From an uncultured Solirubrobacteraceae bacterium (lineage in GTDB: Bacteria > Actinomycetota > Thermoleophilia > Solirubrobacterales > Solirubrobacteraceae): a stretch of 41,826 nt of DNA. Positions 27,536 to 32,073 of the stretch are shown here, one piece after another. Every line of letters starts with the position of its first letter. Position 1 is the first letter of the stretch. Under the pieces are notes generated by a model. It did no database searches and was not told the origin of the DNA. It worked only from the letters and a program-made list of their open reading frames with translations. Made by a program: the position numbers and the translations under genes. The stretch spans positions 1-41,826 of the forward strand of contig CAZPQW010000027.1 of NCBI GenBank assembly GCA_964588985.1, in the 5' to 3' direction.

Positions 27536-29254
27536 ATGAGCCGCTCGAACTCCACACAGCCGCCGAACCGATCTCGCAGCCTCCCGGCCGCGCGGGCTGC
27601 GCTCGGCGCGCTCGCGGGCGTCGTAGCGATGCTCGCTCTCCTCGCCTGCGGCGGCGGCTCCTCGAGCTCGACCTCCACCTCCGCCGCTCTCGGCAAGGCG
27701 GGCAACGCGAACGCGACGCTGATCGTCAACAACTCGGTGCCGGTCGCGACGCTCGACCCGGGCTTCACCACCAACGACCAGGACCCGGGCTTCGACGGGG
27801 CGCTGTACTCCACGCTCACCCAGGTCGAGCAGGTTCCAGGGCCGGTCGCCGGTACGACCGAGCAGAACCTCAGCATCACCGCGGTCAAGCCCTACATCGC
27901 GCAGTCCTACAGCTACAGCGACGGAAATCGCACGCTCACCTTCCACCTGCGGCCCGGCCTGAAGTTCCCGAGCGGCGACCCGCTCGACGCCCACGCCGTG
28001 GTGTGGTCGCTCGACCGCGTGATCACGGCGAAAGGCGGCGCGTACTCGAACCTCGAAGAAACCGACTACCACCCGCCGCTGGTCAAGTCGATCTCCGCGC
28101 CCGACCCGCTGACGGTGGTCATCCACTACAAGCGCCCCGCGCCCAACCAGCTGCAGGTTCTCTCCACGCCGTCCACCGGCGCGATCTACGACCCGCAGCT
28201 GGTCGAAGCGCACGGCGGGCAGAAGGGCTCCGCGCCGAACCAGTGGCTCGCCAGCCACGACGCCGGCTACGGACCGTACCTGCTGAAGAGCTACAGCCCC
28301 AACCACCAGGTCGTGCTGGAAGCGAACCCCGGCTTCTTCGAAGCGCCCAAGGCGAAGAAGATCATCCTCAACTTCATCCCCGACAACGAAACGCTGCTGC
28401 TCGACGCGCAGTCCGGCGCGGCGGATATCACGCTGGGGCTGACCAACCAGGCCGCGCACAGCCTCGTCGGCAACTCCTGCTGCACGGTCGCGTTGTTCAA
28501 GTCGCGCCAGGCGGAGACGCTGAACCTCCCGGAGAGCACGCGCAAGCCGTGGCTCACCGGCAAGAACCCGTTCTTCAACAACCAGGACTTCCGCCAGGCG
28601 CTGAGCTACGCGTTCCCCTACGAAGCCGTCCTGCAGAAGGTGGCCTACGGCTACGGCAAGCTCTACTTCGGCGAGTGGATGCCGTCCTACTCCTGGTATG
28701 ACCCGAAGGTCGGCCCGCCCCGGCCGACGGACCTGACGAAGGCCAGGGAACTGCTGGCCAAGTCGGGGATCAAGACTCCGGTGAGCTTCACCATCTACGT
28801 CGGCCAGGGCGACAACATCGGCAAGGAAATCGCGACCGCCGCGGCGGGCGCCTGGCAGCCGCTGGGCGTCGACGCGAAGGTCCAGGTCGTATCGCCGGCG
28901 GCGTTCCTCGAAGTCGTCTACACCAACCACGACGGCGCCACGGTGTTCCTCGACGGCCCCCAGGTGGTCGCGCCCGACTACCACTGGGGATACGACCTGC
29001 AGTGCCCGCCCAACAACCAGTACAACGACACCAACGTGTGCGTCCCCGCGGCGGACAAGCTGATGAAACAGGTCCCCTACACGACCCAGGAACCGCAGCG
29101 CCAGCAGCTCCTGAACAAGGCGGACGAACTGTACATCGAAGCCACTCCGCGGCTGTGGGTCTACGACAGCGAACTGGTGGCGGTGCTCGGCAAGCACGTG
29201 ACGGGCTACTACTCCAGCGACCTGCCGGACATGCGCTTCTGGGCGAAGGACTAG
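27536..29254 (+). CDS. ABC transporter substrate-binding lipoprotein, family 5
   Basis: Lipobox LLAC; TLDPG, TFHLRPGLKFPSGDPLDA, GYGPY, FRQALSYA; divergent from the permeases. Confidence 0.92.
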   Translation: MSRSNSTQPPNRSRSLPAARAALGALAGVVAMLALLACGGGSSSSTSTSAALGKAGNANATLIVNNSVPVATLDPGFTTNDQDPGFDGALYSTLTQVEQVPGPVAGTTEQNLSITAVKPYIAQSYSYSDGNRTLTFHLRPGLKFPSGDPLDAHAVVWSLDRVITAKGGAYSNLEETDYHPPLVKSISAPDPLTVVIHYKRPAPNQLQVLSTPSTGAIYDPQLVEAHGGQKGSAPNQWLASHDAGYGPYLLKSYSPNHQVVLEANPGFFEAPKAKKIILNFIPDNETLLLDAQSGAADITLGLTNQAAHSLVGNSCCTVALFKSRQAETLNLPESTRKPWLTGKNPFFNNQDFRQALSYAFPYEAVLQKVAYGYGKLYFGEWMPSYSWYDPKVGPPRPTDLTKARELLAKSGIKTPVSFTIYVGQGDNIGKEIATAAAGAWQPLGVDAKVQVVSPAAFLEVVYTNHDGATVFLDGPQVVAPDYHWGYDLQCPPNNQYNDTNVCVPAADKLMKQVPYTTQEPQRQQLLNKADELYIEATPRLWVYDSELVAVLGKHVTGYYSSDLPDMRFWAKD

Positions 29255-31214: not shown

Positions 31215-31243
31215 CCGCTCGGACTCTCGAGAGAGGGGAGCAG

Positions 31244-31339
31244 TGCGCCCGGAGGGAATCGAACCCTCGGCCTGCGGCTTGAAAGACCGCTGCTCTTTGG
31301 CTCCCCGAAGAGAACCGTTGACCACTGAGCTACGGGCGC
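31244..31339 (-). tRNA. Atypical 96-nt tRNA, anticodon UUC (nominally Glu), with a hairpin inserted in the D-loop
   Basis: Reverse complement GCGCCCG TA GCTC AGTGGTCAAC-GGTTCTC TTCG GGGAGCC-AAA GAGC A GCGGT CTTTCAA GCCGC AGGCC GAGGG TTCGATT CCCTC CGGGCGC A; all four arms pair. Confidence 0.85.
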
Positions 31340-31495
31340 GCGTTATGGATGTCTATCGACTCTATCGGCCGAACGCGCACCTTATCTAAGCAAGGCCGTT
31401 GCTTGCACCGCGATCACCGTGTCGGCCAAGCGGCCGATCGTTTCCGACTGAGGCGCCTTCGGCGACCCAGAATCCCAGTGGGTGCGGCATGAGCG

Positions 31496-31549
31496 GAATG
31501 TCATACACGAATGTTAAGTTGACATTCTGCGTAAAACGTGATTTATATG
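31496..31549 (+). promoter_or_regulatory. Candidate sigma70-type promoter with overlapping palindromic operator
   Basis: Perfect TTGACA at 31519-31524 inside GAATGTTAA-G-TTGACATTC (31509-31527). AT-rich, imperfect -10 region (TTTATAT) starting at 31542. Confidence 0.5.
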
Positions 31550-31559
31550 TCCTCAGCGG

Positions 31560-31845
31560 GAATGGCTCCCGACCATCTGGAGCGCTTTTTCAACCGGATG
31601 GGACGACAGTGCAAAGGGGACTGGAAGGTCTGATGACGGGCTTTAGGTCAAGCAAGATGCGAGACCAGCAGCACGACACACGCGGTGCCTGTGCGATTTA
31701 TCGCACAGGATTCAGTGTCGTACCTGCGGCTGGGTCATTTGGAAAGAACTCGAGCGCTCCGGTTGTCCAGTTTGGACAACCGCCGATGCTCGGATCCATG
31801 CCTCGCGGCGGGTGCCGCGCTGGCCAAGGAATGGGGATGGAGGAC
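31560..31845 (+). ncRNA. Putative structured RNA / long 5' leader (family not recognised)
   Basis: Four successive stem-loops: 31573-31601, 31665-31733 (inner perfect 10-bp stem 31688-31709), 31751-31792 (inner perfect 10-bp stem 31760-31782) and 31804-31819. Strand inferred from the upstream promoter. Confidence 0.45.
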
Positions 31846-31847
31846 CT

Positions 31848-32045
31848 ATGGAAATGAGAGTGTTCGATTGCCACGAGCAACGGATGCTGCGTGGCCTGCA
31901 CGGCCGTTGGCCGTATCGCCGCTCACACTGCCGCCACGACCTGCACTGGCTGGTGCGGGTGCAGGCGCATCAGAGCTGGTGCGCGAGCCCACGCACGCAC
32001 TCCATGTCCGGCCTGCGCGTCCACAGCCGCCGGCCGTCTCGATAG
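31848..32045 (+). CDS. Small His/Arg/Cys-rich hypothetical protein (65 aa)
   Basis: GGAGG at 31839-31843 before ATG 31848 (alternative ATG 31854); most codons end in G/C as in host genes; stop lies 28 bp before the convergent hydrolase stop. Confidence 0.5.
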   Translation: MEMRVFDCHEQRMLRGLHGRWPYRRSHCRHDLHWLVRVQAHQSWCASPRTHSMSGLRVHSRRPSR

Positions 32046-32073
32046 CCGGCGAGTCTTCGGAGAGGGGAGAGCC

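Follow-up and report, generated by a model that had tools for sequence, protein, structure and literature searches.

A tRNA gene with a hairpin inserted in the D-loop

The window analysed here, a stretch of 41,826 nucleotides (contig CAZPQW010000027.1 of assembly GCA_964588985.1) from an uncultured Solirubrobacteraceae bacterium, carries a transfer RNA (tRNA) gene of 96 nucleotides (nt) with anticodon UUC, and the D-loop of this tRNA contains an additional hairpin. The genome to which the window belongs (G000) is 3.41 Mb in size and 95.9% complete. The elements of the gene, with their pairing in an alignment of 33 distinct homologous 96-mers, are as follows.

31244..31339, minus strand: tRNA gene, 96 nt, anticodon UUC (glutamate by its anticodon); Rfam RF00005, ARAGORN (locus 31243-31339) and reading of the sequence
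31333..31339, minus strand: 5' strand of the acceptor stem, a perfect 7 base pairs (bp) with 31245-31251, discriminator A at 31244; 100% paired, 1 of 7 pairs compensatory
31327..31330, minus strand: 5' strand of the D-stem, GCUC, with its partner GAGC at 31292-31295; invariant, 100% paired
31317..31326, minus strand: 5' part of the D-loop, AGUGGUCAAC, with the conserved G18 and G19 followed by the linker UCAAC; invariant
31299..31316, minus strand: inserted hairpin (candidate fifth arm), 7 bp and a UUCG tetraloop, occupying the site of the variable nucleotides 20a/20b; 99.1% paired, double-sided changes in 5 of 7 pairs
31296..31298, minus strand: 3' linker of the D-loop, AAA, the final A in place of A21; invariant
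31274..31290, minus strand: anticodon arm with a 5-bp stem and the loop CUUUCAA, anticodon UUC at 31281-31283, placed by the Rfam alignment; 100% paired, 2 of 5 pairs compensatory
31252..31268, minus strand: T-arm with the loop UUCGAUU; 100% paired, 3 of 5 pairs compensatory

Rfam RF00005 recognises the gene with 66.2 bits (E 2.2e-12; gathering score 29), and its alignment places a 25-nt insertion behind the GGU of the D-loop. The D-loop spans 31 nt (31326-31296), which lies outside the range of ~7-11 nt typical for ordinary tRNAs; the variable loop comprises 5 nt. A first-pass annotation, made from the letters of the window, had described a cloverleaf with a 7-bp acceptor stem, a GCTC/GAGC D-stem, a 5-bp anticodon stem and a TTCGATT T-loop. 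All of these elements hold on reading of the sequence, as does the 31-nt D-loop that it reported, and the coordinates that it gave for the UUCG-closed 7-bp hairpin, 31299-31316, are exact.

ARAGORN, which the same annotation had proposed to run, detects the locus, yet it folds the molecule wrongly and assigns no amino acid. The program types the gene as 'tRNA-??? (ggag)', a class-II-like fold, because it mistakes the hairpin for an anticodon arm and assigns the genuine one to the variable arm. The two helices special to this fold are only 57.6% and 55.2% paired in the 33 homologues and show no compensatory change, and the fold was rejected. CCA is not encoded at the 3' end of the gene, where CUG comes next. 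A scan for promoters and terminators around the gene returned no consensus match, and the gap of ~730 nt upstream (31340-32073) contains no open reading frame (ORF) with a Pfam match.

The hairpin is conserved and covaries

Of the 36 other genomes of the genus, 33 contain the complete 96-nt form, with 88-100% identity. The 5' D-arm motif, which leads into the insert, was detected, mostly as a single copy, in 181 of 201 genomes of the genus (a count that takes in one unpublished genome, G174) and in 80 of the 83 high-quality ones. The same motif and the 96-nt format recur in genera g68, g76 and g88 of a second family, f4 (uncultured Solirubrobacterales). A scan of one genome per species yielded at least 120 records with the motif; the 80 titles among the matches listed are all metagenome-assembled genomes of uncultured Solirubrobacterales, Solirubrobacteraceae, Thermoleophilia, 'Actinomycetes' or Conexibacteraceae, which agrees with the Thermoleophilia that the first-pass annotation had named. 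Length is nearly fixed: of 166 UUC copies of 95-97 nt, 163 have exactly 96 nt, and the extraction by script listed one each of 95 and 97 nt beside them. The hairpin itself occurs in ~22 sequence variants that keep its 18 nt and are capped by UUCG, UACG, UUUG, UAAC, UCAC, GCAA and other loops, with the extra-stable UNCG and GNRA types being frequent.

In the alignment of 33 sequences all four standard helices are 100% paired. The inserted helix is 99.1% paired, and double-sided changes occur in five of its seven pairs, a single position showing as many as six types of pair. None of 500 shuffles reaches the values observed for the whole structure, and controls in which the helix was slid are 37-53% paired. 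The linkers that flank the hairpin, 5' UCAAC and 3' AAA, do not vary at all. The minimum free energy (MFE) structure of the single sequence (-45.6 kcal/mol, z -3.49, equalled by 0 of 200 shuffles) pairs the insert otherwise than in the hairpin; this pairing was rejected since 12-14 of the 33 sequences disrupt its three inner pairs, none of which is compensatory. Synteny is partly conserved: among 149 loci of relatives, a neighbouring hydrolase was found in 38, a transketolase in 34 and a deacetylase in 26.

An assembly artefact is ruled out by the occurrence of the 96-nt form in 33 of 36 congeners and in contigs of four metatranscriptome runs from four studies. What is shown is that the hairpin is real and conserved, that it covaries and that its length hardly varies. 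The first-pass annotation had argued for selection rather than decay, and the homologues and the covariation of the inserted stem strongly support that view. Homologues, covariation and, in part, conserved synteny, which it had suggested looking for, are all present; the artefact or lack of homologues that it had named as grounds for abandoning the idea did not materialise, as the hairpin is kept in the congeners and in the metatranscriptome contigs.

The hairpin tRNA is the only GAA decoder found

ARAGORN lists 48 tRNA candidates in G000, which make up a standard set apart from two or three doubtful calls; glutamate is served by one CUC tRNA and by the UUC gene of the window. An independent pattern scan of the genome, which required acceptor pairing together with T-arm and anticodon arm in a span of 330 nt, gave 0 further candidates. 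A canonical UUC tRNA was likewise not found in the single-contig genomes G005, G023, G025 and G043 with the tRNA-Glu(UUC) of G059 as query, which matched only Asp-GUC, Glu-CUC and the D-insert tRNA, nor in G395, G398, G473 and G005 with the UUC tRNA of G226. Six single-contig relatives with the hairpin form were covered, and no canonical UUC tRNA was found in any of them. The window tRNA is the only UUC tRNA found in the 95.9%-complete genome and is apparently indispensable.

The codon it would read is common. GAA accounts for 8,722 of 52,974 glutamate codons (16.5%) and for ~1% of all codons in the 2,057 coding-like ORFs of G000. Where genes of the window were aligned with relatives, their GAA codons (n = 359) faced GAA 160 times, GAG 94, GAC 19, CAG 14 and AAG 11 times, and this replacement profile is the same as that of GAG codons. 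The comparison was extended to five genomes without the hairpin form, with ORFs called by a filter on third-position GC content and 'signal-like' ORFs defined by a hydropathy window, not SignalP, both of which are crude procedures. Glutamate was again the top residue at GAA sites, at 44% in ordinary ORFs and at 27% of 136 sites in signal-like ORFs (21 high-scoring segment pairs, a small sample). Aspartate ranked second, and lysine reached at most 5%. The less conserved GAA sites of signal-like ORFs are read, tentatively in view of the small sample, as variable surface positions.

Because GAA sites align first with GAA, GAG and glutamate, GAA most likely means glutamate. A reassignment of GAA to lysine or another residue, as the Arg/Lys-like body of the tRNA (see below) might suggest, was rejected, with lysine at just 3-5% of GAA sites.

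An Arg/Lys-like body in a probably non-discriminating setting

Three features go beyond the first-pass annotation: an Arg/Lys-like tRNA body, a wider family of D-loop inserts and a link to codon usage. Once the insert is removed, the body is nearest to G000's own Arg(UCU) (77%), Lys(UUU) (76%) and Arg(ACG) (75%) tRNAs, and its acceptor stem is identical in two Arg tRNAs of the genome. Glu(CUC) falls outside the ten most similar tRNAs. The body of Escherichia coli tRNA-Glu is characterised by U11-A24 in the D-stem and a 4-nt variable loop that lacks position 47; the window tRNA has C11-G24 and a 5-nt variable loop, and so does not show the features of a Glu-type body. A sister genus of the same family, represented by G226, has a UUC tRNA of the normal Glu type and lacks a homologue of the window tRNA.

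G000 encodes one gene of the glutamyl-tRNA synthetase (GluRS) family, in the region C33:12073-12969, and no GlnRS, so its GluRS is probably non-discriminating. The insert sits in the D-loop region that also contains A20, the base by which ArgRS identifies tRNA-Arg. In the covered passages of a study of the amidotransferase GatCAB, the tail of GatB rejects tRNA-Glu by means of a flipped-out extra D-loop base, U20B (PMC2811023). The GluRS proteins of G000 and G005 (L241, L413) have an insertion of ~7 residues that is missing in the four other GluRS compared, including those of hairpin lineages of f4.

A wider family of D-loop inserts

A looser D-loop pattern matches 81 of 301 Solirubrobacterales genomes that are at least 90% complete and 13 of 74 genera. 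By family, the matches number 27 of 108 genomes in f1, 0 of 8 in f2, 19 of 66 in f3, 34 of 107 in f4 and 0 of 11 in f5. Forty places with this pattern were fetched, and 14 passed a strict cloverleaf script. The same tRNA body occurs with anticodon GCG and a 23-nt insertion by the Rfam count that gives 25 nt for the window tRNA, with anticodon UUU and inserts of ~30 and ~53 nt, and with anticodon UGU and an insert of ~41 nt; one extra copy of the body has the loop CCAGUAA. These copies with extra anticodons lie at loci L035-L037 (G011), L038 (G001:C374), L063, L066 and L068. The ~53-nt type is present in three identical copies in G011, whose identical flanks suggest a repeated or mobile element.

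Structured inserts of far greater length (~115-150 nt) occupy the same site in tRNAs of 192-227 nt with anticodons UUG, UCU, UAG and UUC; in the order these loci are L049-L057, L083, L090, L091, L097, L111 and L112. Their common core consists of two helices separated by a UUCAA-type bulge and followed by a GCCGC hairpin, and 8 of 43 predicted pairs are compensatory. The short and long forms have the same flanking linkers and a G-C-rich basal stem. In genus g3, no UUC tRNA was found other than one with ~115-130 nt inserted at this D-loop site. Neither the long inserts nor the window insert matches any Rfam family besides tRNA, the long ones even at E<=10. In G019, G002, G025 and G009 the long-insert tRNA(UUG) (L051-L054) lies directly downstream of an ORF whose product may, judging by a motif at its C-terminus, be similar to class I aminoacyl-tRNA synthetases.

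Hairpin-type tRNAs are also found on five IMG/VR contigs (L400-L404), with 60-67 bits and anticodons UUC and CCU. Two of these loci share one CCU tRNA. On the longer of the two, which has a GC content of 53%, a tape-measure gene follows just downstream of this tRNA and a tail-sheath gene lies ~3.5 kb off, so the CCU tRNA there is phage-encoded. On L400, a normal-length tRNA-Glu(UUC) and a hairpin tRNA lie next to an integrase; the hairpin tRNA there may belong to host flank.

Several relatives contain copies of the 3' 40-50 nt of the tRNA 3-30 kb downstream of the gene (G027:C2, G034:C2, G032:C1, G031:C3 and G009:C8), suggesting that the tRNA serves integrative elements as an attachment site. 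A repeat of the tRNA 3' end that would mark an integrated island was looked for within the window, and none was found. Lone 3' fragments of tRNA-Asp(GUC) that adjoin unrelated sequence were seen at L302-L304 and L309 (G226, G227, G230); these are likely attachment-site remnants of integrated elements.

Some further observations were made in G000. ARAGORN calls a 73-nt tRNA with anticodon UAA and no long variable arm at G000:C5:104171-104243 (minus strand), and a normal 87-nt tRNA-Leu(UAA) is located on C1. Two 'tRNA-Arg(gcg)' calls with poor stems, at G000:C4:150012-150105 and G000:C39:15065-15142, one of them with 94 nt and 81% GC, are probably false positives. A large multi-module non-ribosomal peptide synthetase cluster occupies ~128-170 kb of G000:C1.

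GAA is concentrated in genes for exported proteins

In the median gene of G000, GAA makes up 11% of the glutamate codons, and 86 of 1,735 ORFs have a GAA share of at least 60%. Eighteen such GAA-rich ORFs were scanned against Pfam; nine had a match, and all nine encode large surface or exported proteins (NHL, FN3, PKD, RCC1, DUF7507, FliD, MlaD). The idea that GAA-rich genes form a highly expressed core is unsupported, those looked up being surface or exported proteins. One gene of the window has the same bias.

27536..29254, plus strand: gene for an extracellular solute-binding protein (Pfam SBP_bac_5, E 5.4e-65); 14 GAA and 5 GAG codons

An N-terminus resembling a signal peptide, with no other membrane segment, is predicted in 59 of the 86 GAA-rich ORFs versus 71 of 1,475 GAA-poor ones (odds ratio 43, p = 4e-49). 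When 253 signal-like ORFs of G000 were compared with 1,804 others, the first 100 codons being skipped, the GAA share was 0.46 versus 0.13 and the AAA share 0.27 versus 0.11; the codon shares of all amino acids other than Glu and Lys agree within 0.06.

The split recurs in other genomes with the short hairpin. G395, a member of f4, has GAA shares of 0.505 in signal-like and 0.143 in other ORFs over 400 kb, and pooled 8-kb loci of ~120 short-hairpin genomes give 0.379 versus 0.139. No such split was seen in five genomes defined as negative by the missing short-hairpin motif: G226, from G000's own family and the only one of the five shown to have a canonical UUC tRNA (0.091 versus 0.072), G037 (0.140 versus 0.110), the long-insert genome G043 (0.032 versus 0.040), G060 (0.035 versus 0.028) and G229 (0.038 versus 0.021). 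With the tRNA queries used, no GAA decoder came up in G037, G060 or G229. Genes for solute-binding proteins follow the same line, with GAA:GAG counts of 16:7 and 10:2 in G005 and 28:5 in G398, where flanking ORFs prefer GAG, and of 0:20, 3:16 and 3:14 in G240, which is without the hairpin. Those of G052 are intermediate, and the flanking ORFs there bear GAA too.

AAA in G000 is decoded by an ordinary tRNA-Lys, and its enrichment in the genes of exported proteins indicates that the codon effect is not exclusive to the hairpin tRNA. The association between hairpin and GAA is a correlation over few, partly sampled genomes, and thus a lead, not a result.

Fate and function of the inserted arm

We favour, with a probability of roughly 0.6, a model in which the hairpin is retained as a fifth arm of a working tRNA-Glu. 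The window gene would then encode the organism's only GAA-reading tRNA, which would be charged with glutamate by the single GluRS and used in ordinary translation, and the 18-nt hairpin would stay in the mature molecule, with selection maintaining its pairing and length. As the arm follows G18-G19 and emanates from the flipped-out positions 20a/20b, it should project from the outer corner of the L and leave the contacts between D-loop and T-loop intact. Searches for the splicing enzymes RtcB (PF01139) and EndA (PF01974) gave 0 matches in G000, and in control genomes EndA was detected in 4 of 14 and RtcB in 10 of 14. A bulge-helix-bulge motif was not visible on inspection, there being no two 3-nt bulges around a 4-bp helix; the hairpin forms a continuous 7-bp helix between single-stranded CAAC and AAA. 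In each of the four metatranscriptome runs one contig covers the whole tRNA including the insert, and no joints were seen, although these contigs show neither ends nor strand nor joints, so that absent joints are not evidence against splicing.

The first-pass annotation had left three options, a five-armed tRNA, a spliced or processed insert and a tRNA mimic. The five-armed tRNA ranks above the spliced insert, which is disfavoured, in view of the near-fixed length, the failure to find RtcB and EndA, and the unspliced form in RNA-library contigs. The mimic is unlikely: no other UUC tRNA was found in the genome, the codon GAA is common, and its sites align mainly with glutamate.

Our preferred, though tentative, proposal for its function is that a retained arm acts as a steric flag on an Arg/Lys-like body that was recruited for GAA, repelling enzymes that read the D-loop, such as GatCAB and ArgRS. 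The arm could also set the rate of GAA decoding. A more speculative extension, which we consider rather unlikely, takes the arm in the D-loop as the mark of a decoder devoted to GAA. In the hairpin lineages, exported and surface proteins would have come to be encoded with GAA (up to 80-100% in single genes) and the other genes, mostly cytoplasmic, would rely on GAG, with the arm as a handle for decoding speed, tRNA supply or ribosome-associated factors that tune the secretome, and phages would copy the format. Such a system would be a bacterial counterpart, based on tRNA structure, of the bldA and AA-ending-codon systems discussed below.

Several observations weigh against retention or against the function proposed for the arm. 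The insert of ~115-130 nt in the UUC tRNA of g3 is hard to fit on the ribosome, and the order may therefore be able to remove or to tolerate D-loop inserts, the short hairpin included. Covariation and a fixed length would equally be expected of a stem that is recognised by a processing enzyme. The metatranscriptome contigs pass both ends of the tRNA and reach into its flanks, so they may derive from DNA or from a precursor, and assembled contigs drop rare spliced forms. From what is known of the structures involved, a helix projecting at the elbow could collide with the L1 stalk, the A-site finger or RNase P. No indel common to the GluRS of hairpin lineages was found when four hairpin genomes were compared with two without the hairpin, which differ in just six specific columns. 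Finally, the idea of an anti-determinant cannot cover the whole family, because a body with anticodon UUG would not be a substrate of GatCAB.

Among the alternatives, a hairpin that is retained yet functionless is a possibility we regard as doubtful. It would be a harmless scar of a larger element that has shrunk to its basal stem and is kept folded and short, and the codon pattern would be unrelated. The linkers and the G-C-rich basal stem common to short and long forms are compatible with such an origin, as are the GluRS without a co-varying feature, the enrichment of AAA, read by a normal tRNA-Lys, in the same class of genes, and the freely varying loop sequences, which do not indicate a sequence-specific contact. 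A mere scar is less easily reconciled with a stem fixed at 7 bp in two families, with phage copies that keep a hairpin, or with a GAA split that is strong in G000, G395 and the pooled short-hairpin loci and missing in five genomes without the short hairpin, among them one of the sister genus.

Excision of the hairpin is unlikely. In this scenario the insert would be an intervening sequence, either a small intron or the stub of a larger element, that is excised and religated by a machinery new to bacteria to leave a tRNA of the usual length. Inserts from 23 to ~150 nt at exactly the same site in tRNAs with the same body, the only UUC tRNA found in G043 with its ~130-nt insert, and the normal 7-nt D-loop that a deletion of ~24 nt would restore all speak for it. 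Bulky domains such as the long inserts, with their conserved core and 8 of 43 compensatory pairs, would also be easier to square with removal. However, RtcB and EndA were not found in G000 and no bulge-helix-bulge is visible, the long inserts match no Rfam intron or ribozyme at E<=10, a 7-bp hairpin is incapable of self-splicing, and the length of the hairpin is nearly invariant whereas introns usually drift; the lack of a joined form in the contigs of four RNA runs is a weak argument in the same direction.

It is very improbable that the insert is cut and not religated, as happens to intervening sequences of bacterial 23S rRNA, so that the working tRNA would consist of two fragments joined through the pairing of acceptor stem and D-stem. 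What speaks for it is the analogy with rRNA, and a 7-bp acceptor stem together with a 4-bp D-stem could hold a 5' piece of ~25 nt; yet a 7-bp stem is probably too short for RNase III, the UNCG and GNRA loops that are so frequent are extra-stable, contrary to the needs of a cleavage site, and no contig of the four metatranscriptome runs ends inside the hairpin.

Least probable of all is a molecule with no role as a translational tRNA, be it a pseudogene, a tRNA-like attachment site or an RNA used off the ribosome, as might be suspected from the 3'-half copies 3-30 kb downstream in several relatives and from a body without the D-arm features of G000's Glu-CUC tRNA, since every arm is compensatory or invariant and the window tRNA completes an otherwise standard anticodon set in a genome in which ~1% of codons are GAA.

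Relation to known tRNAs and implications

With the canonical bacterial tRNA-Glu(UUC), a class I tRNA, the window tRNA shares the cloverleaf, G18-G19, the T-loop, a 5-nt variable loop, the anticodon UUC, the discriminator A and the position of sole GAA decoder; it differs in its 31-nt D-loop with a 7-bp hairpin and in its Arg/Lys-like body. Class II tRNAs (Leu, Ser and bacterial Tyr) also bear a fifth helical arm, one about as large and accepted by the ribosome, but it is located between the anticodon arm and the T-arm, whereas here it lies inside the D-loop and the variable loop has 5 nt. Introns in the D-loop have reportedly been found in tRNAs of Thermoproteales archaea and of the red alga Cyanidioschyzon, where they are non-canonical and of the bulge-helix-bulge type. 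These, too, are short D-loop inserts in otherwise normal tRNA genes; unlike the present case, they are archaeal or eukaryotic and need a bulge-helix-bulge, EndA and an RtcB-type ligase, none of which was found here. Group I and group II introns of bacterial tRNAs are self-splicing, at least 200 nt long and usually situated in the anticodon loop; the window insert, at 18-25 nt, matches no Rfam intron model.

A functional parallel may be the U20B anti-determinant of bacterial tRNA-Glu, as far as the covered passages of its description go (PMC2811023): extra material is placed at the same D-loop site, and the organism must keep Glu-tRNA-Glu off the amidotransferase, yet a single flipped-out base is used there and an 18-nt helix here. 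Allo-tRNAs of soil metagenomes likewise combine unusual architectures with uncultured soil bacteria and, in some cases, ties to mobile elements, and the covered passages of a review on them do not describe a D-loop hairpin (PMC7609411). In the full-text literature searched, with partial coverage of subscription journals, no account of a D-loop hairpin in a bacterial tRNA was found, and an earlier description is possible.

For the codon pattern, a parallel is bldA of Streptomyces, where the tRNA for the rare codon UUA controls a class of genes. A eukaryotic precedent is provided by secreted effectors of Magnaporthe, which are described as using AA-ending codons with s2U34 tRNAs (bioRxiv 10.1101/2025.11.10.687658). 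Both systems resemble ours in that a functional class of genes is enriched in one synonymous codon, which a single tRNA reads, the codon here being GAA and, more weakly, AAA; they differ in that GAA also makes up ~13% in other genes here, that the tRNA is marked by its structure, and that the link is correlational and covers few genomes.

The shape of tRNA is among the most conserved features of life, and extra length in bacteria is expected only in the variable arm. Here an arm in the D-loop of an apparently indispensable tRNA is conserved and covaries in hundreds of uncultured soil species and has been copied by phages. Standard tRNA finders miscall the hairpin form, to which ARAGORN gives no amino acid, and miss or break the long forms, so that these genomes look devoid of a GAA decoder. 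If the arm is retained, the ribosome, EF-Tu, RNase P, the CCA-adding enzyme and GluRS would all tolerate a fifth arm at the elbow; such a tRNA would be useful for tRNA engineering and orthogonal pairs and would offer a natural test of how GatCAB and ArgRS discriminate between tRNAs. If it is removed, bacteria would have an unrecognised route of tRNA splicing. The related D-loop domains of 115-150 nt possibly represent a new class of bacterial tRNA introns or a structured expansion of tRNA. The GAA split is testable and may reveal a codon-based control of the bacterial secretome.

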